A stretch of DNA of 64,000 nt from Desulfobacterales bacterium (GTDB lineage Bacteria; Desulfobacterota; Desulfobacteria; Desulfobacterales; SpSt-501), in assembly GCA_037481615.1 (NCBI GenBank), contig JBBFLI010000014.1; one strand, 5' to 3'. Numbering within the stretch: the stretch's first letter is position 1; every line of letters starts with the position of its first letter. Below the pieces are notes generated by a model. That model made no database searches, was not told where the DNA came from, and saw nothing but the letters and a program-made list of their open reading frames with translations. Both the position numbers and the translations under genes were made by a program. Below are positions 23,082-52,272 of this stretch, one piece after another.

Positions 23082-23558
23082 ATGAAGCAGAAGTACGAAA
23101 TTTTGAAGGACGACGATTCCCGCCGGTTCATCATCCGCGAGTATGCCGAGCTCGACAAGGATGTCATGTCCCTGCTCTGCGAGGAGAGCTACGACCGCAA
23201 GACCCTCAAGGCCGCCCAGGCGGCCGGCCGCGACGCCCTGATCCGGGCCCTGCGCACGAAAAACCTCTTCCCGCCGTCCCTCTACGCCGCCCGGATCGCC
23301 GACCAGGTGGCGGAGATGCTCGGCAGCCGCGGGCCGGCGACCGCCGAGCTCGTCTTCGACGATCTCGAATTCCTCTCGCGCGCACCCGAAACCCTCGAGG
23401 CGGCGGTCGTCTACGAGGCCGAGGCCCCCGAGATCGACGAACTCCTCGACGCCGGCCTCGAGGAAGAGAAGTTCGACCAGGGCGAAGAGGTCGGAAAGAT
23501 CGACTCGTCGCTCAAGATCGAGGACGACGAGTTCGTCGACATCGACGACGAGAGTTGA
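23082..23558 (+). CDS. Highly acidic hypothetical protein
   Basis: 158 aa. MKQKYEILKDDDSRRFIIREYAELDKDVMSLL... The C-terminal third is almost entirely D/E (…EIDELLDAGLEEEKFDQGEE…EDDEFVDIDDES). Has its own promoter and terminator. Confidence 0.6.
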   Translation: MKQKYEILKDDDSRRFIIREYAELDKDVMSLLCEESYDRKTLKAAQAAGRDALIRALRTKNLFPPSLYAARIADQVAEMLGSRGPATAELVFDDLEFLSRAPETLEAAVVYEAEAPEIDELLDAGLEEEKFDQGEEVGKIDSSLKIEDDEFVDIDDES

Positions 23559-23565
23559 AACCCCC

Positions 23566-23596
23566 AAACGCCCGGCTTCGGCCGGGCGTTTCGTTT
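23566..23596 (+). terminator. Intrinsic terminator
   Basis: aaacgcccggc ttcg gccgggcgttt, followed by a CGTTT tail. Confidence 0.7.
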
Positions 23597-23743
23597 GGCA
23601 GCTCAGGGCGCCGCCCGGCAAGAGGCGCCCGCCCTTTCCGGAATGCAGCGGTCCTCTCGAAGAATAACCTCTTGGAGAGGCATCCACGATCCGGCCGCGG
23701 CCGGGACCGGGGCACGATCCACAAGCGCATCAAGGAGGTGCAA

Positions 23744-24688: not shown

Positions 24689-24730
24689 TCCGCCGGACGG
24701 CGATCCCAATATCTTCAAGGAGGAGATCGT

Positions 24731-26386
24731 ATGGCAGAACGCATCATCGTCGATCCGATCACCCGTATCGAAGGACACCTGCGCATCGAGGTCGAAGTGT
24801 CCGGCGGCAAGGTGGTGAACGCCTGGAGCTCGGGGCAGATGTTCCGCGGGATTGAAGTCATCCTGCAGGGCCGGGATCCCCGCGACGCCCATCATTTCGT
24901 CCAGCGCTCCTGCGGGGTTTGCACCTACGTGCATGCCATCGCCTCAGTGCGCGCGGTGGATGACGCCGTCAAGGTGAAGATCCCCAAGAACGCGCGCCTC
25001 ATCCGCAACCTGCTCCTGGGCGCTCAGTACCAGCACGACCACATCGTCCATTTCTATCACCTGCACGCGCTCGATTGGGTGGATGTGGTGAGCGCACTCA
25101 AGGCCGACCCGGCCAAGACCGCCGCGCTCGCCGACAACGTGAGCAACGCCCCCTGGGGCGGGACGACGTACTTCAAGAACGTCCAGCAGCGGCTCAAGAC
25201 CTTCGTCGAGAGCGGCCAGCTCGGCCCCTTCGCCAACGCCTACTGGGGCCACCCGGCCTACAAGCTGCCGCCGGAGGCGAACCTCATGGCGGCGGCGCAC
25301 TACATCGAGGCCCTGCGCCTGCAGGCCAAAGCCGCGCGCATGCACGCCATCTTCGGCGGCAAGAACCCGCACCCGCAGTCGCTCGTGGTGGGCGGCGTCA
25401 CCTGCGCGGCGGATCTCACGGCCGAGCGCATCGCCGAGTTCCTCTACATCACCAAGGAAACCCACGATTTCGTGAAGAACGTCTACATCCCCGATCTGCT
25501 GGCCGTGGCCTCCTTCTACAAGGACTGGGGCGGGATCGGCCGCACGACGAACTTCCTCGCCTGGGGCGATTTCCCGCTGAGCGAAAAGGAGCCGGAGAGC
25601 CTCTTCATGCCGCGCGGCGTGATCTTCAAGCGCAACCTGGAAAAGCCGGTCATGGCCGACCCCGGCAAGGTGACCGAGCACGTCGCACGCTCCTGGTACG
25701 AAGGCACCCAGGCCCGGCATCCCTACCAGGGCGAGACCAAGCCGTTCCAGGGCGACCCCAAGTACGACACGGACTCGAAAGACGGCCGGTACTCTTGGCT
25801 CAAGGCGCCGCGCTACGAGGGCGAGCCCTGCGAGGTCGGCCCCCTGTCCCACGTGCTGGTGGGTTACGCCTACGGCCAGAAGGAGTGGAAGCAGCCGGTC
25901 GATCACGTGCTCAAGACCCTGAACATCCCCGCCGAGGCCCTCTTCTCGACGCTCGGCCGGACCGCGGCCCGCGGCATCGAAACGCTCGTCATCGGCGAGG
26001 CGATGCAGGGCTGGGTGATGGAGCTCGTCGAGAACATCAAGAAGGGGGACACCCAGACCTACGAGCCCTACGAGATGCCCGACAAGGCCCAGGGCGTCGG
26101 CCTGAACGACGTCCCCCGCGGCGCCCTCGGCCACTGGATCGTCATCGAGAACAAGAAGATCAAGAACTACCAGTATGTCGTCCCCTCCACCTGGAATCTC
26201 GCCCCCCGGTGCGCCGCCGGCAAGATGAGCCCGGTGGAGGAGGCGCTGATCGGCACCCCGATCGCCGACCCCAAGCGCCCGCTCGAGATCCTGCGCACGG
26301 TCCATTCCTACGACCCCTGCATCGCCTGCGCCGTGCACGTGATCGATCCGGACTCGAACGAAGTCTACAAGGTCCGCGCCGCCTGA
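24731..26386 (+). CDS. Periplasmic [NiFe] hydrogenase large subunit
   Basis: 551 aa. DPITRIEGH, RSCGVCTYVH (N-terminal Ni ligands), and C-terminal DPCIACAVH followed by a 15-aa cleavable extension. Cys, not Sec, at the Ni site. Confidence 0.95.
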   Translation: MAERIIVDPITRIEGHLRIEVEVSGGKVVNAWSSGQMFRGIEVILQGRDPRDAHHFVQRSCGVCTYVHAIASVRAVDDAVKVKIPKNARLIRNLLLGAQYQHDHIVHFYHLHALDWVDVVSALKADPAKTAALADNVSNAPWGGTTYFKNVQQRLKTFVESGQLGPFANAYWGHPAYKLPPEANLMAAAHYIEALRLQAKAARMHAIFGGKNPHPQSLVVGGVTCAADLTAERIAEFLYITKETHDFVKNVYIPDLLAVASFYKDWGGIGRTTNFLAWGDFPLSEKEPESLFMPRGVIFKRNLEKPVMADPGKVTEHVARSWYEGTQARHPYQGETKPFQGDPKYDTDSKDGRYSWLKAPRYEGEPCEVGPLSHVLVGYAYGQKEWKQPVDHVLKTLNIPAEALFSTLGRTAARGIETLVIGEAMQGWVMELVENIKKGDTQTYEPYEMPDKAQGVGLNDVPRGALGHWIVIENKKIKNYQYVVPSTWNLAPRCAAGKMSPVEEALIGTPIADPKRPLEILRTVHSYDPCIACAVHVIDPDSNEVYKVRAA

Positions 26387-26400
26387 GCCGGATCCCGACC

Positions 26401-26444
26401 GGCCTCCGGGCCGCCCCGCAACCGGGCGGCCCGGAGGCCTTTTT
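26401..26444 (+). terminator. Strong intrinsic terminator between hydrogenase structural and maturation genes
   Basis: Perfect 16-bp stem ggcctccgggccgccc (26401-26416) / gggcggcccggaggcc (26424-26439), 7-nt loop, T5 (26440-26444). Confidence 0.8.
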
Positions 26445-26452
26445 CATGGGCC

Positions 26453-27013
26453 ATGCCCGTCGTTTCCGACAATCCCTTCGACGCCGAAAACGCCCCCGAG
26501 ATCCTCGTTCTCGGCATCGGCTCGCTGCTGTTTTCCGACGACGGCTTCGGGATCCACGTCATCCGGCGGCTGGAGGCGGAATACGCCTTCCCCGACCGCG
26601 TGCACGTGGTCGACGGCGGGGTGCTGGGGGTCAACCTGCTGGGGGTCATCTCCAAGCCGCGGCACCTGATCGTGGTCGACGCCGTGCGCAACCGGGGAAA
26701 GCCGGGCGACCTCCACCGCATCGATCACGAGGAGATCCCCTCGCGCATCCGCGCCAAGAATTCGCTCCACCAGGTCGATTTCCTCGAAGCGCTCACCCTC
26801 TGCCAGGCTCTCGACAACGTGCCGCGGACGGTTATTTTGGGGGTCGAGCCCCAGGATGTCGAAACCCTCGGCCTCGAGCTTTCCCCGCCGGTGGCCGCGC
26901 AGGTCGAGCCCATGATCCGTCTCGTCCTCGCCGAGCTCGAGCGGCTGGGCGTCTCTTGGACCCGGAAGGATTCGGTTCCCGATGTGTCTTGCGATCCCTT
27001 CGCGCATCGTTGA
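26453..27013 (+). CDS. Hydrogenase maturation endopeptidase (HynC/HybD/HyaD family)
   Basis: 186 aa. ILVLGIGSLLFSDDGFGIHV...LIVVDAV...SLHQVDFLE matches the GxGNxxxxDDGxG / DA / H pattern of Ni-dependent C-terminal proteases. Confidence 0.85.
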   Translation: MPVVSDNPFDAENAPEILVLGIGSLLFSDDGFGIHVIRRLEAEYAFPDRVHVVDGGVLGVNLLGVISKPRHLIVVDAVRNRGKPGDLHRIDHEEIPSRIRAKNSLHQVDFLEALTLCQALDNVPRTVILGVEPQDVETLGLELSPPVAAQVEPMIRLVLAELERLGVSWTRKDSVPDVSCDPFAHR

Positions 27014-27242
27014 GATCCAGGACGGCATGGCCGTGATCGACGTGGACGGGGTGCGCCGCGAGTGCAGCCTGCTTCTGCTCGAGAACGCCGCCGTCGGCGA
27101 CTGGGTCATCGTGCATGCGGGATTCGCCATCTCGCGCATCGACGAGGAGGCGGCCCGCGAGACGCTCTCTCTCCTGCGCGAGGCCGCCGCACGCGTCGCC
27201 GAGCGGCCCTCGGAGGAGGAGCCCCCGGCCGGGGGGGGATAA
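26982..27242 (+). CDS. hypC: Hydrogenase assembly chaperone HypC/HupF family
   Basis: 86 aa starting MCLAIPSRIVEI (essential Cys2). 32-nt overlap with the protease gene. Confidence 0.9.
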   Translation: MCLAIPSRIVEIQDGMAVIDVDGVRRECSLLLLENAAVGDWVIVHAGFAISRIDEEAARETLSLLREAAARVAERPSEEEPPAGGG

Positions 27243-27246
27243 GGCC

Positions 27247-29520
27247 ATGGACGCGCGGCTTGCGGCGCGCCGGCTGCTGGTGAACGGCATCGTCCAGGGG
27301 GTGGGCTTCCGGCCCTTCGTCTATCAGCTGGCGCTGCGCCACGGCTTGAAGGGCGAGGTCGGGAACACCTCCGAGGGGGTGCAAATCGACATCGAAGGCC
27401 CCCCCGAAAAGCTCGCCGCCTTTGAAGCCGAGCTCGTCTCCCGCACCCCGCCGCTCGCCCGGATCACGGAGCTCCGCGCGGCCGACGGGGAGGTGCGCGG
27501 TCTGCAAACCTTCCGCATCGCGGAGAGCCGCCGCGGCACCTCCATGGAGACCCTGATTCCGCCGGATGTCGCCGTCTGCGCCGACTGCCTGGCCGAACTC
27601 TTCGACCCCCACGACCGCCGCTTCCGCTACGCCTTCATCAATTGCACCAACTGCGGGCCCCGCTACACGATCATCGAGGACATCCCCTACGACCGGCCCA
27701 AGACCTCGATGCGCGATTTCCCGATGTGCGCGGCCTGCCGCGCCGAGTACGAGGACCCCGCCGACCGCCGCTTCCACGCCCAGCCGAACGCCTGCCCGGT
27801 CTGCGGGCCGCGGCTCGAGCTCCGCAGCGCCGCGGGCGAACGGGTGGAGGCCGCCGACCCCGTCGCCGCCGCGGCGGCGCTGCTCCGGGAGGGCGCGGTC
27901 CTCGCCGTGAAAGGCCTGGGGGGCTTCCACCTCGCGGTCGACGCCTTCGACGCCCGGGCGGTCGCGCGGCTGCGCGAACGCAAGCGCCGCGAGGAAAAGC
28001 CGCTCGCCGTCATGTCGCCCGACCTCGCCGCGGTCCGCGCATACGCCTTCGTGGAGGAGGAGGAAGGCCGGCTGCTGTCCTCCCCCGAGCGTCCGATCGT
28101 GCTCCTGCGCAAGCGGCCCGAGAGCCCGCTCGCCGCCGGGGTCGCCCCGCGCAACCGTGATGTGGGGGTGCTGCTCCCCTACACGCCGCTCCATCACCTG
28201 CTGCTCGCCGAGGGGTTCTCCGCGCTCGTGATGACGAGCGGCAACCTGAGCGAGGAGCCGATCGCCTCGGGGAACGAGGAGGCGCTCGCGCGGCTCTCGG
28301 GGATCGCCGACGCCTTTCTCCTCCACGACCGCGGGATCGTGCGGCGCTGCGACGACTCGGTCGTCCGTCGGGTCGCGGGCAAAACGCGTTTCGTCCGTCG
28401 GGCGCGGGGCTACGTGCCGCGGCCGGTCTTTCTCTCCCGGCGGCTGCCGCCGCTGCTCGCCGTGGGCGCGGAGCTCAAGAACACGGTCTGCCTCGTCAAA
28501 GGCGACCGCGCCTTCCTCAGCCCCCACATCGGGGACCTCGAGAACCTCGCGACCTACGAGGCGTTCTGCGAGACGATCGCCCACCTCGAGCGCGTCCTCG
28601 AAATCCGCCCCGAAATCCTCGCCTGCGACCTGCACCCCGACTACCTGAGCACCCGCTGGGCCGAGGAACGGTCGGGGGTGGCCCTGCGGCGCGTGCAGCA
28701 CCACCACGCCCACGTCGCCGCCTGCATGGCCGAGCACGGCCTCGAGGGCCCGGTGATCGGCATCGCCTGCGACGGCACGGGCTACGGCCCCGACGGGACG
28801 GTCTGGGGCGGAGAAGTGCTCGCCGCGGACACCGTGGGCTTCGAACGCCTGGCGCATCTCGCCTGCGTTCCCATGCCCGGGGGAACGGCCGCGATCCGCG
28901 AGCCCTGGCGCATGGCGGTGAGCCACCTGCAGGCCGCCTACGGAAGCGGGTTTTCCCGCCTGGAGTTGCCCTTCCTCGCGGAAGTGGGGGCGGAAAAGAT
29001 CCGCGCGGCGGCGGCCCTCGGGGCCTCCGGGATCAATTCCCCGCTCACCTCCAGCCTCGGGCGGCTCTTCGACGCCGTGGCCGCGATCGTGGGGCTGCGC
29101 CGCCGGGTGGCCTTCGAGGGGCAGGCGGCGATGGAGCTCGAGATGGAGGCGGCCGAGGGGGTGGAGGACGCCTACGAGACGGAATGGGAGGAGGGTTCGC
29201 CGCGGCGCATCCTGCCCGAGCCGATCCTGCGCGGGGTGGTGGCGGACGTGCTCCGCGGGCGGCCTGCCTCCGAGATCAGCGCCCGCTTCCACAACGGGCT
29301 GGTGCGGCTCTTCGTGCGCCTTTGCCGGCGCATCCGCGCGGAACGGGGGCTCTCGCGGGTGGTGCTGAGCGGGGGGGTGTTCCAGAACGCCCGGCTGCTC
29401 GCGGATCTGAGCTGCGGCCTTGCCGCGGCGGGCTTTGCGGTGTACAGCCACGAACAGGTCCCGACGAACGACGGCGGCATCGCCCTCGGCCAGGCGCTGA
29501 TCGCGGGCTCCGCCGCCTGA
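27247..29520 (+). CDS. hypF: Carbamoyltransferase HypF
   Basis: ATG 27247. Acylphosphatase-like N-terminus (VNGIVQGVGFRPFVYQLA), two Zn-finger pairs (CADCLAEL...CTNCGPRYT; CAACRAEY...CPVCGP), then YrdC-like and Kae1-like domains. Confidence 0.95.
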   Translation: MDARLAARRLLVNGIVQGVGFRPFVYQLALRHGLKGEVGNTSEGVQIDIEGPPEKLAAFEAELVSRTPPLARITELRAADGEVRGLQTFRIAESRRGTSMETLIPPDVAVCADCLAELFDPHDRRFRYAFINCTNCGPRYTIIEDIPYDRPKTSMRDFPMCAACRAEYEDPADRRFHAQPNACPVCGPRLELRSAAGERVEAADPVAAAAALLREGAVLAVKGLGGFHLAVDAFDARAVARLRERKRREEKPLAVMSPDLAAVRAYAFVEEEEGRLLSSPERPIVLLRKRPESPLAAGVAPRNRDVGVLLPYTPLHHLLLAEGFSALVMTSGNLSEEPIASGNEEALARLSGIADAFLLHDRGIVRRCDDSVVRRVAGKTRFVRRARGYVPRPVFLSRRLPPLLAVGAELKNTVCLVKGDRAFLSPHIGDLENLATYEAFCETIAHLERVLEIRPEILACDLHPDYLSTRWAEERSGVALRRVQHHHAHVAACMAEHGLEGPVIGIACDGTGYGPDGTVWGGEVLAADTVGFERLAHLACVPMPGGTAAIREPWRMAVSHLQAAYGSGFSRLELPFLAEVGAEKIRAAAALGASGINSPLTSSLGRLFDAVAAIVGLRRRVAFEGQAAMELEMEAAEGVEDAYETEWEEGSPRRILPEPILRGVVADVLRGRPASEISARFHNGLVRLFVRLCRRIRAERGLSRVVLSGGVFQNARLLADLSCGLAAAGFAVYSHEQVPTNDGGIALGQALIAGSAA

Positions 29521-29561
29521 AGCCGGGGCGCATCGTTTCTTCCGGGGAGACCTGCACATCC

Positions 29562-30665
29562 ATGGCCGACCGCCACAGCGCCGAATACCGCGACGCGACG
29601 CTCGTGCGTGAACTCGCCGGCCGCATCCGGCGCCGCAGCCGACGGCCGCTGCGCATCATGGAGGTCTGCGGCACGCACACGGTTTCGATCTTCCGCCACG
29701 GGATCCGGAGCCTCCTGCCGGAGACGATCACGCTGCTCTCCGGGCCCGGCTGCCCGGTCTGCGTGACCGACACCTCCGAGATCGACGCCTGCATCGCGCT
29801 CGCCCGGCGGCCGGAAGTCCTCGTCGCCACCTACGGCGATCTCCTGCGCGTGCCCGGGAGCCGTTCCTCGCTCGAGCGCGAACGGGCGGGCGGAAGCGCG
29901 GTGCGGGTCGTCTACTCCGCCCTCGATGCCGTCGCGCTCGCCCGGCGCCACCCCGACCGCGAGGTCGTCTTTCTCGGCATCGGCTTCGAGACGACCGCCC
30001 CTACCGTAGCCGCGGCCCTGCTCGCCGCGCATCGAGCGGGGCTTTCCAACTTCAGCGTGCTCTGCCTGCACAAGACCGTCCCCCCGGCGCTCGCCGCGCT
30101 GACCGCGCTCGGCGACGTCCGGATCGACGCCTTCCTGCTTCCGGGCCATGTCTCCGTCGTCATCGGCCGCCGGGCCTATCTTCCCTTTTTCGAGCGCACG
30201 CGGCTTCCCTGCGCGATCGCCGGCTTCGAGCCGGTCGACATCCTGCAGGCCGTGGCCGCGCTCGTCGACCAAGCCGAGAGCGGGAAGCCGGCCGTGGAGA
30301 ACACCTACCGCCGGGCCGTGGCCGAGGAGGGCAACCCCGCCGCACAGCGCGTGCTCGCGGAGGTCTTTGAGCCGGCCGATGCGCGCTGGCGCGGCCTGGG
30401 CGCCATTGCCGGGAGCGGTCTTGCGATCCGCCCCGCCTTTGCGGCCTTCGACGCGGCGCGTCGTTTTTCCCTGGATCGCGCCCCGGTTGCCGAGCCGCGG
30501 GGCTGCGCCTGCGGGGAGATCCTCACCGCGCGCAAGACCCCCCTTGAATGCCCGCTCTACGGGACCCGCTGCACGCCCGCGGACCCCGTCGGCCCCTGCA
30601 TGGTCTCGAGCGAGGGCACCTGCGCGGCCTACTTCCGCTACCACGACGTCTCCCCCGGAGGATGA
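29562..30665 (+). CDS. hypD: Hydrogenase maturation factor HypD
   Basis: ATG 29562. MEVCGTHT, GPGCPVCVT and GFETTAP motifs. Confidence 0.95.
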   Translation: MADRHSAEYRDATLVRELAGRIRRRSRRPLRIMEVCGTHTVSIFRHGIRSLLPETITLLSGPGCPVCVTDTSEIDACIALARRPEVLVATYGDLLRVPGSRSSLERERAGGSAVRVVYSALDAVALARRHPDREVVFLGIGFETTAPTVAAALLAAHRAGLSNFSVLCLHKTVPPALAALTALGDVRIDAFLLPGHVSVVIGRRAYLPFFERTRLPCAIAGFEPVDILQAVAALVDQAESGKPAVENTYRRAVAEEGNPAAQRVLAEVFEPADARWRGLGAIAGSGLAIRPAFAAFDAARRFSLDRAPVAEPRGCACGEILTARKTPLECPLYGTRCTPADPVGPCMVSSEGTCAAYFRYHDVSPGG

Positions 30666-30668
30666 GGC

Positions 30669-31685
<1,017 letters not shown>

Positions 31686-41904: not shown

Positions 41905-43134
41905 TCAGCGGGAGGCGAGCAGGGGCAGGATGCGGTCGAGGACGGCCTCGGCGACCTCACGCTTGGCAAGCAGCGGCAGGGTTTCCACCCCGCCGCGGGG
42001 GTCGAGGATCGCCACCCGATTCGTCTCCGCCTCGAAGCCGCTTCCCGGGGCACTGACGTCGTTGGCGACGATCAGGTCGAGCCCCTTTTTCTCGAGCTTT
42101 TGGCGCGCGTTCTGCAGGAGTTCCTCGGTCTCGGCGGCGAAGCCCACGACGACGGCCGGCCCCTGCCCCCCGCGCCGCCGCTCGCCGACGAGCGACAGGA
42201 TGTCCTCGGTGCGCACGAGCTCGAGGCGGGCGGACTCGGCCTCCTTCTTGATCTTCTGCTCCGCCGCGACCCGCGGCCGGTAGTCGGCGACCGCCGCGGC
42301 CATGAGCAGGACGTCGGCGCGGGCGCAGGCCTCGAGCACCGCCTCCTTCATCTGCGCCGCGGTGCCGACGGCGACGGCCTCGACCCCGTAGGGCACCTCC
42401 AGGGCGAGGGGCCCGTGGATCAGGGTCACGTGCGCCCCGCGGTCGCGGGCCGCGCGGGCGAGGGCCAGGCCCATCCGGCCGCTGCTGCGGTTGCCGATGA
42501 AGCGCACGGGGTCGATCGGCTCGCGCGTCCCCCCCGCGGTCACGACCACCCTTTTGCCGGCGAGCGGCCCGCTGCGGCCGAGCACCCAGCAGGCCGCCTC
42601 CAGGAGGGTCCCGGGTTCGGCCATGCGGCCCTCGCCCACGCCCCCCGAGGCCAGCCGCCCCTTTTCCGGCCCCACGACGAAGGCGCCGCGGGAAACGAGG
42701 GTGGCGAGGTTCGCGCGCGTCGCCGGGTGATCCCACATGCCCGACTCCATGGCCGGGGCGAGAAGAAGCGGGCCGCGGCAGGCGAGCGCGGTGGTGACGA
42801 GGAGGTTGTCGGCCAGCCCGCAGGCGAGCCGGGCGAGGGTGTTGGCGGTCGCCGGGGCGACGATCATGAGGGCGGCGCGCTTTCCGAGCGCGACGTGGCC
42901 GATCTCGCGGTCCTGGAGGAGCGAGAACATCTCGGTCGCCACCGGCCGCTGGGTGAGGGCCTGGAAGGTGAGCGGCCGGACGAACTCGGCGGCGGCGGGG
43001 GTCATCACCACCTCGACCTCGGCTCCAGCCTGGACGAGGCGGCTCGCCAGATCGGCCGCCTTGTAGGCGGCGATCCCGCCGCTCACGCCGAGGACGAGGC
43101 AGCGTTTGTCCAGCACCGGGATGGTCGTCTCCAT
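41905..43134 (-). CDS. coaBC: Bifunctional phosphopantothenoylcysteine decarboxylase / phosphopantothenate-cysteine ligase
   Basis: 409 aa. LVLGVSGGIAAYKAADL flavoprotein N-terminus and CoaB C-terminal half (ITAGGTREPIDPVRFIGNRSSG). Confidence 0.95.
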   Translation of the reverse strand: METTIPVLDKRCLVLGVSGGIAAYKAADLASRLVQAGAEVEVVMTPAAAEFVRPLTFQALTQRPVATEMFSLLQDREIGHVALGKRAALMIVAPATANTLARLACGLADNLLVTTALACRGPLLLAPAMESGMWDHPATRANLATLVSRGAFVVGPEKGRLASGGVGEGRMAEPGTLLEAACWVLGRSGPLAGKRVVVTAGGTREPIDPVRFIGNRSSGRMGLALARAARDRGAHVTLIHGPLALEVPYGVEAVAVGTAAQMKEAVLEACARADVLLMAAAVADYRPRVAAEQKIKKEAESARLELVRTEDILSLVGERRRGGQGPAVVVGFAAETEELLQNARQKLEKKGLDLIVANDVSAPGSGFEAETNRVAILDPRGGVETLPLLAKREVAEAVLDRILPLLASR

Positions 43135-43159
43135 GGGGCTCCTTCCGGGGGGGGCGGGG

Positions 43160-43927
43160 TCAGCGGTTCATCTCGTAGACCATCCGCAGCCCTTCGAGGG
43201 TGAGCATCGGGTCGACCTTCTCGATCACGCGCGCCTGCTCGGCGAGCAGCGCGGCCATGCCGCCGGTGGCGATGACCCGGGCCTCGCCCCCCAACTCGGC
43301 GCGCAGCCGGCCGACCAGCCCGTCGATCAGGCCGACATAGCCCAGGACCAGGCCCGACTGCATGGCGTGCACGGTGTTGCGGCCGATGGCGGCCGGCGGG
43401 GCCGTGAGCTCGATCCGGGGCAGCTTGGCCGTACGGGCGAAGAGCGCCTCGGCCGCGATCCCGAGCCCCGGCGCGATGGCCCCGCCGAGGTAGTGCCCCT
43501 CGCGGGAGAGGGCGTCGAAGGTGGTCGCCGTGCCGAAGTCGACCACGATACAGGGGCAGCCGTAGAGGCTCTTGGCGGCCACGGCGTTCAGGATGCGGTC
43601 GGCGCCGAGCTCCGCGGGGTAGTCGATGCGGATCTCGACCCCGGTGCGCAGGCGGTGGGAGACGACGAGGGGCTCGAGGCCGAGGTAGCGGCGGCTGAGT
43701 TCGACGAAGACCGGAGTGACCGGCGGGACGACGCTCGAGAGGGCGACCCCGGTGAGCTGCGACCAGGAGAGGCCGCGGAATTCGAAGAAGCTGCGCAGCA
43801 GCATGGCGTACTCGTCGGCCAGCCGCGCGCGGTCGGTCGCGGCCCGCCAGTGGGCGAGCCAGCCGGAGCCCTCCCCGTGAACGCCGAAAGAGGTGTTCGT
43901 GTTGTTCACGTTGACGGCGAGCAGCAT
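43160..43927 (-). CDS. coaX: Type III pantothenate kinase
   Basis: 255 aa. MLLAVNVNNTNTSFGV..., IVVDFGTATTFD and IATGGMA are ASKHA motifs of CoaX. Confidence 0.9.
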   Translation of the reverse strand: MLLAVNVNNTNTSFGVHGEGSGWLAHWRAATDRARLADEYAMLLRSFFEFRGLSWSQLTGVALSSVVPPVTPVFVELSRRYLGLEPLVVSHRLRTGVEIRIDYPAELGADRILNAVAAKSLYGCPCIVVDFGTATTFDALSREGHYLGGAIAPGLGIAAEALFARTAKLPRIELTAPPAAIGRNTVHAMQSGLVLGYVGLIDGLVGRLRAELGGEARVIATGGMAALLAEQARVIEKVDPMLTLEGLRMVYEMNR

Positions 43928-43971
43928 GGGCCTCTTCTATCCGCGCCGCCCCGGGATTGCAACCCCGGCGC

Positions 43972-44709
43972 TCAGGCGGCGGGGCCGTGCCGGTGGGGGC
44001 GGTCCCCCAGCCGGTGGGCGTGCACGTGCCGGTGGAGCGCCTCCCCGTCGACCCCGCAGATGCGCCCCGCCTCGAGGGTGAGCAGCCGGTCGCACAGCGC
44101 GGTCAGCAGGTCGATGTCGTGGGAGATGATCGCCCGGGGGATGGCGAGCCCCTCGAGCACCTCGACCAGCCGCAGGCGCGTGCGGGAGTCGAGACCGTTT
44201 TCGGGCTCGTCGAGAAGCAGCGCCTCGGGCTCCATCGCGAGCACCGCGGCGAGCGAAACCAGCCGCTTTTCGCCGCCGGAGAGTTTGAAGCCGATCCGGT
44301 CCTCGAAGCCCTCGAGCCCCAGGGCGGCGAGCGTTCGCCGGGCTGCGGCCAGGGCCTCCTGCCGCGATCGGCCGAGGTTGAGGGGGCCGAAGGCGACGTC
44401 TTCGATCACCGTGGGGCAGAAGAGCTGGTCCTCGGGGTCCTGGAAGACGAGCCCGATGCGCCGGCGGACCTCGAGAAAGTCGGCCTCCGCGCGTCGGGGT
44501 TTCCCGAAGACGCGGATCTCGCCCGCCTGGGGCCGCAGCAGCCCCATGATCAGAAGAAAAAGGGTCGTCTTGCCGCTGCCGTTCGGCGCAAGGATCCCGA
44601 CGCGCTCGCCCGGCCCGAGGGCGAAGTCGAGGCCTTCCAGGATCGGCTTCGCGCCCGGGTAGCCGAAGCGGACGCCCTGCAGGGCGATGATCGGCGCGGA
44701 GGCGTCCAT
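43972..44709 (-). CDS. nikO: ECF transporter ATPase (CbiO/NikO)
   Basis: ATG 44709. Walker A APNGSGKTT, signature LSGGEKR, Walker B LLLDEP. Confidence 0.85.
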   Translation of the reverse strand: MDASAPIIALQGVRFGYPGAKPILEGLDFALGPGERVGILAPNGSGKTTLFLLIMGLLRPQAGEIRVFGKPRRAEADFLEVRRRIGLVFQDPEDQLFCPTVIEDVAFGPLNLGRSRQEALAAARRTLAALGLEGFEDRIGFKLSGGEKRLVSLAAVLAMEPEALLLDEPENGLDSRTRLRLVEVLEGLAIPRAIISHDIDLLTALCDRLLTLEAGRICGVDGEALHRHVHAHRLGDRPHRHGPAA

Positions 44710-44726
44710 CGGTTTTTTCGGCCCTT

Positions 44727-45482
44727 TCAGCGCGCGAACTCGAGCGCCGCCGAGGCGGCGACGGCGGCGGCGACGGCGGCGGCGAAGGCGAGCGAGCCCC
44801 TGCCCAGATGGAACTCGTGCAGGCTGAAGAACACCCCCTGGAAGCCGCGGCAGACCATCGCCCGACGGACGCGCTCGGCACGGTCCACGGCGCGCACGAG
44901 GAGCATGCCGAGCAGCCAGGCGAAGGTGCGGTAGGTGTGCAGGTCGGTCCGCGGGCGGAAACCCCGCAGCGCCGCGGCCCGCCGCAGTCTGCGGAATTCC
45001 TGCTCGAGGAGGGCGAGATAACGCCAGGTGAGCAACAAAAGCTGCACGAGTTTTCCCGGGGCCCCCAGCCGGTGAAGGGCGTGTCCCGCGGTCGGCAGGG
45101 AAAGGGGCGCGACGAGCGCGAGCAGCGCGAGCACGAGGGCGTTCGATTTGAGCGTGATCGCAAACGCCAGGAGAACCCCCTCGCGGCTCGCCGCAAGGGG
45201 GCCGAGCCGCAGCAGGGCCTCCCCCGGCAGGCTGAAGGGGAGAAAGATCCACAAGAGCGCGATGAAGCCGTTCACGGCGAAGAGGCGGCGCAGCACCGAC
45301 CCGGCCGAAAGGCGGAAGAAGACCGCCAGCGCCAGCGCAAAGACGAGTGCGGCGGCGATGCTCGCGGGCTTCTGCCAAACGGCGGTTGCGCTGCTGTAGG
45401 CCAGGGCGGCGACCAGACGCACCCGCGGGTCGATTCGCGCCGCGAGCGCTCTCCCCCCGGCGGCGAGGGGTTCGGGGAGCAA
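44727..45482 (-). CDS. nikQ: ECF transporter transmembrane T component (CbiQ/NikQ)
   Basis: 251 aa, multi-TM. ...RRAAALRGF...RAERVRRAMVCRGF is the conserved CbiQ Arg-rich coupling-helix region. Confidence 0.8.
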   Translation of the reverse strand: MLPEPLAAGGRALAARIDPRVRLVAALAYSSATAVWQKPASIAAALVFALALAVFFRLSAGSVLRRLFAVNGFIALLWIFLPFSLPGEALLRLGPLAASREGVLLAFAITLKSNALVLALLALVAPLSLPTAGHALHRLGAPGKLVQLLLLTWRYLALLEQEFRRLRRAAALRGFRPRTDLHTYRTFAWLLGMLLVRAVDRAERVRRAMVCRGFQGVFFSLHEFHLGRGSLAFAAAVAAAVAASAALEFAR

Positions 45483-45501
45483 GGCAGCGGGTCTTTTCGT
45501 T

Positions 45502-45690
45502 TCAGGCGCCGAAGACGATGCGGTGCTCGACCAGGTGCATCCGTTTCAGGGGCGCCTTCACGGTCTTCTGCTGGCCGAAGATGTTGACGAGGAGGAAACT
45601 GCCGTCCTCCTGGGGCTCCACCCGGTCGACCGACTCGAGGAGAAGCTCCTCCCGGCCGTCCCGTTCCACGTAGGCGTGCGCTTCACACAT
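45502..45690 (-). CDS. cooT: CooT-family nickel-binding protein
   Basis: 62 aa. MCEAHAYVERDGREELLLESVDRVEPQEDGSFLLVNIFGQQKTV...HRIVF has the N-terminal Met-Cys-Glu-Ala and beta-rich pattern of CooT. Confidence 0.75.
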   Translation of the reverse strand: MCEAHAYVERDGREELLLESVDRVEPQEDGSFLLVNIFGQQKTVKAPLKRMHLVEHRIVFGA

Positions 45691-46105
45691 CGGGCAGCAC
45701 CTCCTTCACTTTCCGGTGCACGAGCGTCTGGACCAGGTGCGGCAGCGGCTCGGCGGAGACCCCCACCAGGCTGACCGCCTCCTGGGTGAGGGGGAGGAAG
45801 ATCTTGGGGGCGGGGCTCCCCATGATCGCCTCGGCCATCCTCGGGGTGACCTCCCCCAGCATGGCGTGCGCCCAGCCGATCGAAATGGCCCCCACGATCA
45901 CATCCACGCGGGGGGCGGTGCGGACGATCGCGTTTTCGCCGCTTGCGGCGCGGTTCGCCCCGGCCTTGAGCATCTGGGCGGCGGCGATGGCATTGGTGCC
46001 GAGCGCGATCAGCTCGACCGTCTCGCCGTAGGCTTCCTTGAGCGCGCGCAGAACGGCCGCCCCGATCCCCCCGCCTTGGCCGTCGATGACGCAGATGCGT
46101 TTCAA
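45683..46105 (-). CDS. DUF3842-like protein
   Basis: 140 aa. MKRICVIDGQGGGIGAAVLRALKEAYGETVELIALGTNAIAAAQMLKAGANRAASGENAIV... recalled as the DUF3842 family signature (IDGQGGGIG). 8-nt overlap with cooT and ATGA overlap with the upstream gene. Confidence 0.6.
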   Translation of the reverse strand: MKRICVIDGQGGGIGAAVLRALKEAYGETVELIALGTNAIAAAQMLKAGANRAASGENAIVRTAPRVDVIVGAISIGWAHAMLGEVTPRMAEAIMGSPAPKIFLPLTQEAVSLVGVSAEPLPHLVQTLVHRKVKEVLPDV

Positions 46106-46692
46106 GCCGGTCCGCCCCCCCGACGCCTGCTCTTGAGCCAGACGGCGAAGCCCGCCAGGCCCACGATCCAGCCCAAGCCCCCCACGACATCGCTCAGCCG
46201 CGCGCGCGGCGCGTGAAGCTCGGCCATCATTTTCACCACGGGGGCGAGCTTCCTGTCCAGCGCTTTTTCGAGGGCCTGCTCGAGCTCGGCGGGGGAGAGG
46301 GAGGCCGCGGCCGCCGCCGGCCCCGAGGCGGGGGCGGGCGAGGGGGCGGCAGCCGCCGGCCCGCCGCCCAGCTCCGCGGCCGAAAGGGGCCAGTCCGCGC
46401 GGTGGCCCATGCCGGCCTCGAGCACGATCGTGAGATCCTCCCGGAGAGGGATCGGGAAGGAAAACTCGCCCCGGTCGTTCGTCTTGCCCTGGAGCAACTC
46501 GCGGCCGGAGCGGTCCAGCACCCGGATCAGACCCTCTTTCACGAGGGTCCCGTCGGGGTACTTGGCCTCGGTGTGGACGGTTTCCCCCTCGACCCAGGCA
46601 AAGAGGTTCACCCGGTGGGCGGAGGCGTCTCCGGGCGGAAGGAGGGGGACGAGAGAGAGGGTCAGGGTGAAGAGAAGCGTTGCGGTGTTCAT
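46102..46692 (-). CDS. nikL: NikL-like accessory component (signal anchor, periplasmic beta-domain, C-terminal TM)
   Basis: ATG 46692 (ATGA overlap with the nikM stop). MNTATLLFTLTLSLVPLL...AHRVNLFAWVEGETVH...DRGEFSFPIP..., Ala/Pro linker, terminal TM GLGWIVGLAGFAVWL. Confidence 0.5.
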   Translation of the reverse strand: MNTATLLFTLTLSLVPLLPPGDASAHRVNLFAWVEGETVHTEAKYPDGTLVKEGLIRVLDRSGRELLQGKTNDRGEFSFPIPLREDLTIVLEAGMGHRADWPLSAAELGGGPAAAAPSPAPASGPAAAAASLSPAELEQALEKALDRKLAPVVKMMAELHAPRARLSDVVGGLGWIVGLAGFAVWLKSRRRGGGPA

Positions 46693-47306
46693 CGCACCTC
46701 CACGGGCGGGCGGCCGGGAAGCAGCCCGGGCTGGACCCGGCGCAGGAACCCCACGCACAGGGCCGTCACGACCCCCTCGATCCCCATCACCGGCAGGTGG
46801 GCGAGGACCACGGCGAAAGCCACGTTCAAAAAATGCTCCCCGCTCAAGGCGAGCGCAAGCCCCACGACGACCCCGCCGAGCAGCACGGAAAGAAAGCCGC
46901 AGGCGAAGGCGGCGGCGAGCGCGGCCGCCTTCGGTCCCTGCAGGAAGCGGGAAAAGAGGCCGTAGCCGGTCACCGCCGGCAGGGCCATGATCAGCGTGTT
47001 CACCCCCAGGGTGGTCAGCCCCCCGAACTGGAAGAAGACCGCCTGCAGGACGAGCCCCACGAGGATCGCGGGGAAGGCCGTCCAGCCGAGGAGCAGACCG
47101 ACCAGGCCGTTCAGGACGAGATGAACGCTCGTCGGCCCGAGCGGCACGTGGACGAGCGAGGCGACGAAGAAGGCCCCGGCGAGCATGGCCGCCCGGGGGA
47201 TCTGCTCGGGCTCGAGTTTCTTCAGGCCGATGCCTGTGCCGGCGGCCGCGAGTGCGGCCCCGGCGAGCAGGACGGGGCCGGAGAGCACCCCTTCGGAGAT
47301 GTGCAT
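46689..47306 (-). CDS. nikM: ECF transporter substrate-capture component CbiM/NikM
   Basis: 205 aa beginning MHISEGVLS (the N-terminal Met-His required for metal ligation in the CbiM/NikM family). Multi-TM. Confidence 0.85.
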   Translation of the reverse strand: MHISEGVLSGPVLLAGAALAAAGTGIGLKKLEPEQIPRAAMLAGAFFVASLVHVPLGPTSVHLVLNGLVGLLLGWTAFPAILVGLVLQAVFFQFGGLTTLGVNTLIMALPAVTGYGLFSRFLQGPKAAALAAAFACGFLSVLLGGVVVGLALALSGEHFLNVAFAVVLAHLPVMGIEGVVTALCVGFLRRVQPGLLPGRPPVEVR

Positions 47307-47348
47307 GAGGCGGATCCTATCCGATTCCGGGTCAAAGCGAAAGCCGCC

Positions 47349-48713
47349 CTAAAAGCCGAACTCCGCCCGGACGGTCGTGGCGAAGACGGGGTCGTTCTCG
47401 GAGTCGCCGCCGGGGTTCCAGACATACTGGAAGTCGGGCGTGAAGGCCAGATTTTCGCCGACCGCGATCCGGTAGTAGACCTCGAGATGCACCTCGGGAT
47501 CGTCCTTGCGGTAGCGTCCGTCCGGGAAGAGCGCGGCCAGGCCCAGGCCGATCTCGTCCTCGTCCCGCCGGGGGAGGAGCCCCTTCAGGTTCACCCCGCC
47601 GGAGATCTCCTGCTTCACCACGTAGACCTCCTCGTTGTTCCAGCCGAGGCGGCCGAAGAGCCCGATCGTCTCGGTCAGCTGCTGGTCGGCCGAGATCCCC
47701 AGCCCCCAGCCCGCGGCCTTGCGACCGGCGATGAAGTTGCGCTCGGCATCGAGCTTCGCATGATCGTAGCCCGCCCGCCAGGCGTAGAAGCGGTAATTGC
47801 CCCCGCGCCCGCCGAAGTGGGGCGAGAAGGAGACCTGCCCCCCGAGAAAGGGCGTGCTGAAGACGTTGTCGTACTTGCTCTTCGCCGTCTCCTCGAGCGG
47901 GCTTCCCCCCACCAGCGGCCGCGAGCTCGAGGCCCCCACCAGGTGGAAGGCGAGAGATTCCCCGGGCTGAACCCTCACCCCGAAGAGCGGGGTGTACTCG
48001 TTCTCGCCGTCGAGCACGGAGTTGTTGACGAAAGGCTTGCCGATGAACTGCTTGCCCTCGTCGTTCGCATAGGCGTTGTCGTCCAGAAAGGAAAGGGGCT
48101 CGCCCTTGCCGGCGGTGAGCGAAAGGCGCTCGTTCCAAAAATGGTGCGTGTAGTGCGCCTCGAGCAGCGCAAGCGCCGTCTCGTCCCCGCCGTCGGTGTT
48201 GTCGTCGGCGATCGTGTTGAGATTGGCGAGCAGCACCTCGGCCGGCTTCACCCGGCCGCCGCCCGTCCGGTCCGCCCCGCTTCCCGCCCCGGCGTGAATG
48301 CGCAGGAAAAACTCCCCCTCCTCCAAAACCGGCACGGCGGGCGTCCAGGACAGCTCGAGATCCGCCGCAAACCCCGCCCCGCTCGGGCTGTCCGCCCGCA
48401 GGCCGTCCAGCTCGTCGGCGCCTCCGTCCTGGTAATACAGCACCGCCCCCCCGTGAATGGAAAGTGTGCCGAAGCGCTCCTCGAGCGCCTCGCCGATCTT
48501 GTCCTCGAGCGCCTTCTCGTTTTTCAGCTCCCGGCGTTTGGCGAGCTGCTCCTGCTCCTCGAGCTTTTGCTCGAGCTCCGCGATCCGCTCTTTCAGCGCC
48601 TGGATCTCCTTGAGCACGGCCGCGTTGTCGGCAAGCGCGCGGCCGCCCGGAACGGCCCCGATCAGCAACAACGCCAGCCCGAGCCCCAGCCACCGTTTCC
48701 TGTCGCACCTCAT
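47349..48713 (-). CDS. Outer-membrane beta-barrel porin with N-terminal coiled coil (OprB/DUF3373-like)
   Basis: ATG 48713 (MRCDRKRWLGLGLALLLIGAVPGGRALA). Coiled coil LKEIQALKERIAELEQKLEEQEQLAKRRELK. Alternating beta-strand pattern. C-terminal ...TVRAEFGF (terminal Phe). Confidence 0.7.
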   Translation of the reverse strand: MRCDRKRWLGLGLALLLIGAVPGGRALADNAAVLKEIQALKERIAELEQKLEEQEQLAKRRELKNEKALEDKIGEALEERFGTLSIHGGAVLYYQDGGADELDGLRADSPSGAGFAADLELSWTPAVPVLEEGEFFLRIHAGAGSGADRTGGGRVKPAEVLLANLNTIADDNTDGGDETALALLEAHYTHHFWNERLSLTAGKGEPLSFLDDNAYANDEGKQFIGKPFVNNSVLDGENEYTPLFGVRVQPGESLAFHLVGASSSRPLVGGSPLEETAKSKYDNVFSTPFLGGQVSFSPHFGGRGGNYRFYAWRAGYDHAKLDAERNFIAGRKAAGWGLGISADQQLTETIGLFGRLGWNNEEVYVVKQEISGGVNLKGLLPRRDEDEIGLGLAALFPDGRYRKDDPEVHLEVYYRIAVGENLAFTPDFQYVWNPGGDSENDPVFATTVRAEFGF

Positions 48714-48772
48714 TTCGCACCTACCTCGAATGTCGTGAGTTGCAGGCGGGGAAAGCCCCCGCCGCCGGACGG

Positions 48773-49543
48773 TCATTTTTCTTTCCAGTCGTGGAAATAG
48801 ACCCAAATCACGCCGCCGATCTCGACCGCCTTGTCCTTGCCGTCCTTTTTCAGCTTGAAATCGGCCGGCGCCAGGGCGGCGAACCCCCACCAGCCCGGCC
48901 GGGGCGCGGCATAGGTGAAGACGCCGTTGCGGTCGGCCTTGACGACCTGGGTGACCTGGTACTCGGTCGGCGGCTCGGCCTTACCCTCGCGGTTGTAGAA
49001 CTCGATTTCGACCTCGGCGAAGGGCGCGGGCTTGCCGTTCTGCTTCACGATCCCCTGGAAGACGTTTCCGGCGTAGAGGCCGAAGGGCCGCGTGAGGGGG
49101 ACGATCTCGATCGGGTGGCCGACCTCGCGGTCCCAGCCCTCCTCCTCGCCGAAGGCCGGGACGACGACCTTGGTGTAGTGCGCGATGAAGGAATCCTCGG
49201 CCGGCTCCCAGTAGGGCTCGGGCTCGAAGTGGAAGATGTAGACCCCGGGGCGCTTAAACGTGTAAGAGGCGCTCCAGGCCGCCTTGCCCATGACCTGCGC
49301 CGGCTTGAGGCCGGCGGAGAGATCCTCCTTCGCCGTGCCGGCGAGCACCCCGAAGACTTTCGGCTTCGCCATGTCCATCCCCACCATTTCCATGGGGTGC
49401 GAGAAGGAGAGCAGGAGTTCGATCGCCTTGGGGTCGGTCTTCGAAATCACGGGCTTGGCGGGGATGAGCATCCCGAAATGGGCCCAGGCGGGCGCGCCGG
49501 AGATCAGGAGCGCAAGACCCAGGGAAACGACACGTTTTTTCAT
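48773..49543 (-). CDS. nikK: Periplasmic DUF4198/NikK-like metal-binding protein
   Basis: ATG 49543 after [35 protein letters not shown]... (signal peptide then the His-Phe-Gly start of the mature protein). Ig-like beta-sandwich region [19 protein letters not shown]...ADRNGVFTY. Confidence 0.7.
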
Positions 49544-49572
49544 GTGCGGCCTCCTTGTCTTCTGCCGTGGCG

Positions 49573-49611
49573 AAAAAAAAAGGCCGCGCGTCCGCGGCGC
49601 CTTCGGGCGCC
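49573..49611 (-). terminator. Leader terminator with overlapping alternative hairpin upstream of nikK
   Basis: Minus strand: GGCGCC-CGAA-GGCGCC (49611-49596) shares GCC with the terminator stem GCCGCG-GACG-CGCGGC (49598-49583). That stem is followed by C + U9 (49581-49573), then 16 nt to the SD. Confidence 0.5.
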
Positions 49612-49692
49612 CCTTTCGCACGGCCTCGACACGGCCAGCAAAAAGCAGCTGAGATTGGGGGAATTGCGGGCTCCGGCCCGCTTTGACGGGCT

Positions 49693-49721
49693 TTGTTAAT
49701 CCAAGGGATCCGGCCTGTCAA
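49693..49721 (-). promoter_or_regulatory. Candidate sigma70 promoter of the nik operon
   Basis: Minus strand TTGACA (49721-49716), 17-nt spacer, TAACAA (49698-49693). Predicted leader of about 140 nt. Confidence 0.5.
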
Positions 49722-49775
49722 GCGGTGGGCCAGGCCTCCTTGACTTGGTTCGGGAAAGTCTCTAAGGAAACCGGG

Positions 49776-50447
49776 ATGGCGCGATCCTCCGGAGAAAGCG
49801 GGAAAAAGCCTTTTTTGTCGCTTAGCCGGGCGGCGGTCTTCTCCTGGGCCGCGGGCCTTTTTCTGGTCTCGGCCTGGATGTTCGTCCTGGGGGTGATGGT
49901 CGGCCGCGGCACGGTGCCGATCGAGTTCGACGTCGAGCGTCTCAAACGCGCCGTCGCGGCCGCCGCGCGGGGGGCGGCCGCGGAAAAACCGCCGCCCCCC
50001 GCGCGGGCGGAGATGAAGAGCAAGGCCGATCTCGGCTTCTATGACCAGCTGCCGCGGGGACCGGAGGAGAAACCCGCCCTCCCGCGGCCCGCGCCGCCCG
50101 AAAAACCCCGCGCGCCCGAGCCCGGGGCGGGGGAGGTGCCGCGGGCGGCCGAGACGGAAAAGAAGCCGCCCCCGCCGCCCCCTTCGCCCGCCATGCAGCC
50201 CCCGGCGGGGGCGGGGCGCACCTTCACCGTCCAGGTGGCGGCCGTGCGCTCCGAAGAGGAGGCGCGGGGCCTTGCGGCAAGGCTCAGGCAGCGGGGGTAC
50301 GCCGCCTACGTCGAACCCGTGCCCTCGGCCGCGGGGGAAAAAATCTTCCGCGTGCGCATGGGCGAGTACCCCACGCGCGATTTCGCCCGCAGCCTCGTCG
50401 AGCGGCTGCGCCGGGACGGTTTTTCCGCCGAGGCGGTCGCGAAATAA
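49776..50447 (+). CDS. SPOR-domain protein (membrane-anchored, Pro-rich linker)
   Basis: ATG 49776 after AAGGA. One TM helix, Pro/Ala/Glu linker, and C-terminal FTVQVAAVRSEEEARGLAARLRQRGYAAYV...FRVRMGEYPTRDFA SPOR fold. Confidence 0.8.
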   Translation: MARSSGESGKKPFLSLSRAAVFSWAAGLFLVSAWMFVLGVMVGRGTVPIEFDVERLKRAVAAAARGAAAEKPPPPARAEMKSKADLGFYDQLPRGPEEKPALPRPAPPEKPRAPEPGAGEVPRAAETEKKPPPPPPSPAMQPPAGAGRTFTVQVAAVRSEEEARGLAARLRQRGYAAYVEPVPSAAGEKIFRVRMGEYPTRDFARSLVERLRRDGFSAEAVAK

Positions 50448-50471
50448 CGCCCGCAGCCTTTGGAGGTCGCC

Positions 50472-50756
50472 ATGGGCATCACGAAAGAGGAGATCCTCCA
50501 CGTCGTCGAGCTCGCGCGCCTGGAGATCGGGGAGCAGGAAATCGACGCCTTCGCCGGGCAGATCGCCGAGATCCTCGCCTACATCGACCAGCTGCGCGAG
50601 GTCGACACGACCGGGGTCCCGGGGACGGCGCACGCGGGGTTCCTCAAGAACGCCTTCCGGGAGGACGAGGAACGCCCTCATCTGCCCCGGCAGGAGGCGC
50701 TCGCCAACGCCCCCGAGGCCGACCACGAGAGCTTTCTCGTGCCGCGGGTGATCTGA
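50472..50756 (+). CDS. gatC: Asp/Glu-tRNA amidotransferase subunit C
   Basis: [41 protein letters not shown]... is a canonical GatC. Confidence 0.9.
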
Positions 50757-50814
50757 AACGGCGGCGGCCTCGCCCCGGCAGACCCCGGCGCCGGCCCTGG
50801 AAAGGAAAACCCCC

Positions 50815-52272
50815 TTGGAACTGCACGAGCTCACGATCGCTCAAGCGCGCCGGCTGCTCGCGAAACGGGAGATCTCCGCCCGCGAGCTGGCGGAGGCGCA
50901 TCTGTCGCGGATCGAGGCCCTGGACGCCGGGATCGGCGCCTTCCTCACGGTGACCGCCGACCAGGCGCTCACCGCCGCGGACGCATCCGACCGCAGGATC
51001 GCCGCCGGCCAAGCCGGCTCGCTCGAGGGGATCCCGCTTGCCCTGAAGGATGTCCTCTGCACGCGCGGGGTGCGCACGAGCTGTGCCTCGCGCATCCTCG
51101 AAAACTTCGTGCCCCCCTACGATGCGACGGCGGTGGCAAGGCTCCGGCAGGCGGGCGCGGTCCTGCTGGGCAAGCTCAACATGGACGAGTTCGCCATGGG
51201 CTCCTCGACCGAGAACTCGGCCTTTCAGGTGACGCGCAACCCCTGGGACCCGGGCCGCACCCCGGGCGGCTCGAGCGGGGGCTCGGCCGCGGCGGTCGCC
51301 GCACGCCTTTGCCTCGGGGCGCTCGGCTCCGACACCGGCGGATCGATCCGCCAGCCCGCCTCGCACTGCGGGGTGGTGGGGCTCAAGCCGACCTACGGCC
51401 GGGTTTCGCGCTACGGCCTCGTCGCCTTCGCCTCCTCGCTCGACCAGGTCGGGCCCTTCGGCCGGACGGTCGAAGATGCCGCCCTCCTGCTCGAGGCGAT
51501 CGCCGGCCACGACCCGGCCGACTCCACCTCCGCCCGCGAACCCGTCCCCGCCTTCTCGGCCGCCCTGGGACAAGGCATCCGAGGGCTCAAGATCGGGATC
51601 CCCGCCGAGTACCGCGCGGCCGAAGGTCTCGACCCCGAGGTGGGCCGCGCCGTCGAGGAGGCGGTCGCCGACCTCGCGCGGCGGGGGGCGGAGCCGGTCG
51701 AGATCTCGCTGCCGCACACGCGCTACGCGGTCGCGGTCTACTACGTCATCGCCCCCGCCGAGGCGAGCTCGAACCTGGCGCGCTACGACGGCGTGAAGTA
51801 CGGCCGCCGCGACGGGGGCGAGGCGGAGCTTCTTTCCATGTACCGCCAAACCCGCGGCCGCAACTTCGGCCCCGAGGTCCGGCGGCGCATCGTGATCGGC
51901 ACCTACTGCCTCTCGGCGGGCTACTACGACGCTTACTACGGCAAGGCCTCGCAGGTGCGCTCGCTCATCGTGCGCGACTTCGCGGAGGCCTTCAAACGGT
52001 GCGACGCGATCGCCTGCCCGACCGCGCCCACCCCCGCCTTCCGGATCGGGGAAAAGGCGGAGGACCCGCTCACCCTCTACTTGGCCGACATCTTCACGAT
52101 CCCGGCGAACCTGGCGGGGATCCCGGCGGTCTCGGTCCCCTGCGCCTTTTCCTCCGCGGGGCTCCCGATCGGGCTCCAGCTCATGGGTAGGGCCTTCGAC
52201 GAGGAGACGATCCTCAGGCTCGCCCACGCCCTCGAGGCGGAGAGGGACCTTTCCCGCCGCCGCCCCTGCTGA
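50815..52272 (+). CDS. gatA: Asp/Glu-tRNA amidotransferase subunit A
   Basis: 485 aa (TTG start). Amidase signature [12 protein letters not shown]...[12 protein letters not shown]. Confidence 0.95.

Follow-up and report, generated by a model that had tools for sequence, protein, structure and literature searches.

A DUF3842-CooT gene pair in a nickel-import operon of a Desulfobacterales bacterium: a candidate cytoplasmic nickel-handling module

An operon carrying genes for a DUF3842 protein and for CooT was identified on the minus strand of a 64,000-nucleotide stretch of DNA from a Desulfobacterales bacterium (assembly GCA_037481615.1, contig JBBFLI010000014.1), referred to here as the window. 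The genes are arranged in the order DUF4198/NikK, OprB porin, CbiM/NikM, NikL, DUF3842, CooT, CbiQ/NikQ, and CbiO/NikO. The first one (48773-49543) encodes a NikK-like periplasmic protein of the DUF4198 family (PF10670, 1.6e-58), the likely ATG being at 49543, after AAGGAGG, and the second one an OprB-family outer-membrane porin (47349-48713; PF04966, 5.1e-31), the reading frame of which is open to 48890 with a likely start near 48713. The CbiM/NikM substrate-specific membrane component (46689-47306) matches PF01891 (5.7e-58) and NF004905 (2.6e-80), and the NikL-type ECF nickel/cobalt transporter subunit (46102-46692) matches NF058648 (1.4e-51, 175 bits, cut-off 100); the likely ATG of NikL, at 46692, overlaps the NikM stop codon. 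Beyond the DUF3842 and CooT genes lie those of the ECF T component CbiQ/NikQ (44727-45482; PF02361, 2.8e-31; TIGR02454, 3.3e-39) and the ECF ATPase CbiO/NikO (43972-44718; PF00005, 8.9e-27; TIGR01166, 2.5e-51). All the components of a NikKMLQO-type ECF importer are therefore encoded on the minus strand between 43972 and 49543, and the DUF3842-CooT pair is flanked by them on both sides, in line with the location inside a transporter operon proposed in an earlier note on this DNA. NikL forms a single open frame here (46102-46758, minus strand); in relatives at 78% identity it is called as two genes (locus L003, 5154-6004), giving pieces of 109 aa and then 118 aa, the latter matching HI_1622_C, which may reflect either a real split or a difference in gene calling.

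The NikMNQO and NikKMLQO systems were reportedly described as ECF nickel transporters by Rodionov et al. in 2006. As in these transporters (PMC11247825), the genes of NikM, NikL, NikQ, NikO, and the DUF4198/NikK-like protein are co-directional in the window, whereas the window operon differs from them by the addition of the OprB porin and by the insertion of DUF3842 and cooT between nikL and nikQ, a layout also seen in relatives; close ones, at 78% identity, keep the entire operon. Since a CooT gene and extra components of the NikL/NikK type are present, the substrate of the importer is probably nickel rather than cobalt. An Rfam scan of positions 43000-51000 with E values up to 1 yielded no match, and no cobalamin riboswitch was detected there. 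Upstream of nikK (49545-49720, minus strand), a promoter-like TTGACA-17-TAACAA sequence precedes a structured leader (fold z-score -2.4), for which Rfam gave no match. The leader contains small hairpins with CGAAAG and CCGAAGG loops and, according to a terminator scan, ends in a terminator-like stem followed by T9 (49583-49598); the nikK ribosome-binding site comes immediately after it.

The earlier note had described the two inserted genes as open reading frames of 140 and 62 aa, the latter starting with MCEA, overlapping by 8 nt; both frames exist on the minus strand and the overlap was confirmed at 45683-45690. The DUF3842 gene (45683-46105) has a TTG start and its product, which begins with MKRICVIDGQGGGIG, matches positions 1-128 of the 130 of the PF12953 profile (1.4e-51, 174.7 bits, gathering cut-off 28.5). 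The product of the CooT gene (45502-45690, ATG start) matches PF10133 (6.9e-22, 78 bits, gathering cut-off 27). Within the overlap (ATGTGTGA), the DUF3842 stop codon falls in CooT codons 2-3 (Cys-Glu), and the Shine-Dalgarno sequence of CooT, GGAGG (45700-45704, minus strand), is embedded in the 3'-terminal part of DUF3842 and precedes the CooT ATG by 9 nt. At the other end, the start of DUF3842 overlaps the stop codon of NikL by 4 nt (46102-46105). PF12953 and PF10133 are each present in one copy in the source genome.

CooT, known from Rhodospirillum rubrum and Carboxydothermus hydrogenoformans, is an accessory protein of CODH that binds nickel, and its role has been called unclear, even in the maturation of CODH; the R. 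rubrum protein, RrCooT, is a homodimer which binds one Ni(II) per dimer, through Cys2 (PMC6006190). The window protein has in common with the known CooT proteins (PF10133, 6FAN) its size, Cys2, and a His near the C-terminus (LVEHRI), and both residues align with those of the C. hydrogenoformans CooT structure 6FAN (9.3e-15); Cys2 is invariant across the 31 CooT sequences aligned. It differs from the known proteins in that its gene is located outside a CODH operon and is joined, in a nickel importer operon, to that of a partner not previously described. A full-text literature search covering about 8.4 million papers yielded none on the function of DUF3842, the sole mention being a weak domain match, and no publication on the DUF3842-CooT pairing was found.

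The co-occurrence of the two families, an analysis which the earlier note had proposed as a check, was determined in 301 genomes drawn from the phylum to which the window belongs. DUF3842 is present in 117 of these genomes (about 39%) and CooT in 183: CooT accompanies DUF3842 in 114 of the 117 carriers, as compared with 69 of the 184 genomes devoid of DUF3842, and the only carriers with no CooT match are G031, G087 (62% complete), and G294. In 63 of the 70 loci fetched from the phylum, CooT is located directly 3' of DUF3842. This set consists of the best 30 DUF3842 loci, in all of which CooT lies at most 1.5 kb away, and of 40 further loci, for which one locus was taken from each family and second copies and suspected exceptions were added; 33 of these 40 have CooT directly downstream. 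The -8 junction of the window pair is shared by 50 of the 62 junctions measured, which come from many families of the phylum, and the DUF3842 stop codon of these junctions falls in the invariant Cys-Glu codons of CooT; since the junction recurs so widely, the overlap far exceeds what would be expected by chance. The pair itself is constant and its neighbors vary: Nik ECF genes are found near about 7 of the 40 further loci, and the other neighbors in this set include ParA-ParB, an MBL-fold gene, YacP, and IspH.

A different arrangement was observed in family f50 (L139, L161, and L163) and in L152, where the place of CooT directly behind DUF3842 is taken by the cobinamide kinase CobU, with CobS next; at a further f50 locus, L162, only CobS was seen downstream. 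CooT is located on another contig in family f50, and none was found in the genome carrying L152 (G294). The CobU-CobS neighbors link DUF3842 to the assembly of the cobalamin lower ligand, and they are not explained by a reading based on nickel.

The two proteins also occur as fusions. Two representatives of about 200 aa proved to be DUF3842-CooT fusions, and a search with one fusion retrieved 19 or more clusters of them (clustering at 90% identity), with identities down to 49%. Desulfuribacillus stibiiarsenatis and D. alkaliarsenatis, both of which have been cultured, carry fusion proteins; one fusion is located right behind CbiQ-CbiO, and a NikL-DUF3842-CooT triple fusion is among the domain arrangements listed. 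The importer-pair layout recurs in Bacillus marasmi as CbiM-CbiQ-CbiO-DUF3842-CooT. DUF3842 and CooT therefore form a conserved, translationally coupled, sometimes fused pair well beyond the source genome. When a natural fusion (P0134) was modeled with AF2, each domain was obtained with confidence (pLDDT 88.7), but with a pTM of 0.68 the packing of the two is tentative, and the predictions of a DUF3842 + CooT complex gave a median of 0.29, the mark being 0.32, which counts neither for nor against binding. Most of the fusions aligned retain the internal MCEAN motif, the Cys of which is gone in six. Since these fusions lack the CooT Cys2, the binding of Ni by this residue is not the whole story, and their sequences suggest that the CooT domain may also have a role apart from metal binding. 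The six sequences (P0290, P0291, P0293, P0294, P0295, and P0298), which often lack the His as well, keep a Cys at the 'GKC' position of their DUF3842 part.

The retention of the CooT domain in these Cys2-less fusions would suit a scaffold or binding role, and it is one of the points in favor of a regulatory function, in which CooT would sense cytoplasmic Ni and, together with DUF3842 as a ligand-sensing Rossmann domain, would throttle the ECF importer or act on the leader RNA. KTN/RCK domains, which gate K+ transporters, provide a model for such a mechanism. In the importer operon the pair separates the S/L from the T/A components, with overlaps of 4 and 8 nt, which is also consistent with it, as is the terminator-bearing leader preceding nikK. 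However, most of the pairs in the phylum adjoin no importer, and neither protein shows any identifiable nucleic-acid-binding or membrane-docking feature. We regard a regulatory function as unlikely.

The function tentatively proposed for DUF3842 in the earlier note was that of an NTP-dependent partner. The AF2 model of DUF3842 (pLDDT 97.4, pTM 0.91) shows a five-stranded alpha/beta/alpha Rossmann-like domain. The residues conserved in the alignment (D8, G9, G11, G12, G15, G36, N38, G56, E57, G84, E85, and P105) are all located at the C-terminal ends of the strands, where the ligand crevice of Rossmann-like domains usually lies. A Gly-rich loop between beta1 and alphaA (D-G-x-G-G-x-x-G, between the strand 2-8 and the helix 10-29) is present, as the earlier note had stated; it reads DGQGGGIG in the window protein and resembles the SDR motif TGxxxGxG, in keeping with weak SDR alignments. 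The acidic residue which ends beta2 and binds the adenosine ribose in the Rossmann domains of the NAD(P) type is absent, the conserved residues there being G36-T37-N38. The structural matches include the NAD domains of LDH/MDH, CoaBC, TIR, and SLOG, the top ones having Z scores of 8-9.4; the best VIA-align match (LDH 2v6b, Z 9.4) and the Foldseek TM scores, which do not exceed 0.51, are both generic for the fold class. PDB sequence and profile searches with DUF3842 gave nothing significant, and for chelatases, LOG/SLOG, and KTN no signal above background was obtained in the fold, sequence, or profile searches. The alignment of the CooT-linked clade contains no conserved Cys or His, and DUF3842 of this clade is therefore unlikely to hold Ni tightly on its own.

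These data bear on the possibility that DUF3842 might be an NTP-hydrolysing metallochaperone partner like HypB, UreG, or CooC. Nickel insertion systems generally employ an NTPase (PMC6006190), and the window pair has in common with HypA/HypB, UreE/UreG, and CooJ/CooC the association, in a nickel context, of a small nickel-binding protein with a partner having a nucleotide-type Gly-rich loop; this loop follows beta-1 and reads GGGIGKT in some homologues. The likeness to a P-loop is superficial, however: the Walker A motif GxxxxGK[ST] is absent from DUF3842 (DGQGGGIGAAV in the window protein), and no Lys-Ser/Thr is conserved. DUF3842 does not match the CbiA, cobW, HypB, or UreG families, its only Pfam match being PF12953, and no NCBIfam family was significant; its fold matches are NAD-type Rossmann domains, with no P-loop GTPase in the structural match lists. 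Unlike the G3E/SIMIBI P-loop NTPases, the partner is here a 140-aa Rossmann-like protein with no Walker A and no Cys/His metal motif, such as one of the CxCH type. In addition, the source genome encodes HypA-HypB on another contig (C51), so that the pair is no substitute for these proteins. By these sequence criteria DUF3842 is not an NTPase of the HypB/UreG/CooC type, and we give such a function hardly any credit. The idea of a two-component nickel module put forward in the earlier note is thus retained as regards the conserved pairing and the nickel contexts, and abandoned as regards the analogy with these NTPases.

DUF3842 also occurs in Clostridia and other Bacillota. The 80 loci analyzed, which are the best matches to a Clostridial alignment query and not a random sample, include none with CooT within 6 kb of DUF3842, and in five of the genomes concerned no CooT was found at any location. 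The pairing is therefore not obligatory and, because these five genomes are devoid of any CooT, DUF3842 must have a function of its own. A Cys at the 'RC/KC' position after beta5 is present in all 80 of these CooT-less proteins and absent in all 63 CooT-linked loci of the phylum. The idea that this Cys and CooT might be mutually exclusive was rejected, since six fusions have both and seven CooT-less loci of the phylum lack the Cys; the pattern may reflect only clade membership.

The Bacillota loci link DUF3842 to nickel independently of CooT. Of the 80 loci, 22 have larE, larB, and/or larC as neighbors of DUF3842 and 17 have a pair of small membrane proteins for which Pfam gave no match, making 28 loci with one or the other or both; in all but one of them, these genes are directly downstream of DUF3842 on the same strand. 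ABC genes of the Nik/Opp type and genes of ECF S components are repeatedly found in the vicinity as well, and a DUF3842-LarC fusion is represented by nine member sequences. DUF3842 is thus tied to nickel by ECF importers, larBCE operons, the LarC fusion, and Nik/Opp-type ABC genes. No lar, membrane-pair, or SBP_bac_5 gene was found within 6 kb in the remaining 52 loci; in Acetivibrio thermocellus, for example, DUF3842 is an orphan gene, and at another locus without nickel-linked genes its neighbors are HxlR and a thioesterase. The membrane pair of the 17 loci lies between DUF3842 and larB/larC/larE, as at L072 (6571-7047) and L094 (7017-7418). The first protein of this pair (about 136 aa) starts with MACFLVP and contains FEHxWHGE, and the second one (about 105 aa) contains CWxYWGASLMWLVDA; together they may serve in the uptake or handling of nickel, as a pair not described so far.

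The Lar system of Lactiplantibacillus plantarum consists of LarB, LarC, and LarE together with a nickel importer, Lar(MN)QO, and the Clostridial DUF3842 genes recall it in that they head larE/larB/larC operons beside putative nickel uptake genes. The window differs from it, having no adjacent lar gene and LarC on another contig, and the Lar system as described does not include DUF3842. DUF3842 might nevertheless be a pyridine-nucleotide-binding carrier or helper (for NaAD, P2TMN, or NPN) acting with LarC in the metabolism of the nickel-pincer cofactor, CooT being merely the nickel supplier. The lar operons headed by DUF3842, only 1 of which has a LarA-like gene close by, would fit this function, as would the LarC fusion and the Rossmann-like fold with its SDR-like [T/D]GxxxGxG loop. 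LarC is also present in the source genome and in 265 of the 301 genomes of the phylum; since it is so common, its phyletic profile does not discriminate between possible clients. What speaks against this function is that three near-complete genomes of family f48 (G077, G111, and G175) have the pair and no LarC was found in them, and that DUF3842 lacks the conserved Lys/His pair which tethers NPN in LarA and NphT (PMC13524815). We consider this function quite improbable.

The genome contains several potential recipients of nickel. The small and large subunits of a [NiFe] hydrogenase, followed by HypF, HypD, and HypE, are encoded in the window itself (23555-31685, plus strand), at a distance of about 14-22 kb from the importer genes, and a CooS-type CODH and three LarA-like genes are present along with LarC. 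In one of the f48 genomes mentioned above (G175), [NiFe] hydrogenases are present and neither CooS nor LarC was detected. Since the pair occurs in this family without LarC, and in G175 without CooS as well, it is restricted to neither CODH nor the pincer cofactor.

The reading best supported by these data is that of a general module for accepting or relaying nickel in the cytoplasm: CooT would carry the metal, and DUF3842 would be its ligand-binding partner. We put slightly better than even odds (about 0.55) on the two proteins being a two-protein cytoplasmic nickel-handling module with a ligand-gated hand-over to the maturation systems. The pair would be co-produced with the NikK-porin-NikMLQO importer, and the CooT dimer would hold Ni(II) by means of Cys2. 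DUF3842, which has a conserved Gly-rich pocket lined with Asp, Asn, and Glu, would most likely dock on CooT and bind a small phosphate-bearing ligand (a nucleotide or a dinucleotide) controlling the pick-up or the hand-over of nickel, and the clients receiving the metal would be LarC, CODH, and the [NiFe]-hydrogenase maturation systems. The gene pairing, the fusions, the nickel contexts, and the fold class are established by the data above; the physical contact between the two proteins, the binding of the ligand, and the direction in which nickel flows are the parts of this scheme which we infer. More tentatively, and with the balance tipping against it, DUF3842 might be the founder of a new class of nickel-trafficking proteins, a nucleotide- or pyridine-nucleotide-gated Rossmann adaptor receiving Ni from importers by way of CooT (or, in Clostridia, of its own Cys) and passing it on to LarC and other maturases; if this were true, there would exist a nickel delivery route involving no G3E GTPase.

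Because the function of CooT is unclear and there is no literature on DUF3842, this near-obligate, coupled, and repeatedly fused partnership is informative about both families. On the strength of the pairing, a role in the handling of nickel, although not that of an NTPase, can be proposed for DUF3842 and put to the test; together with the links to larBCE and to importers, the pairing points to an undescribed step between the import of nickel and the maturation of nickel enzymes in anaerobes.
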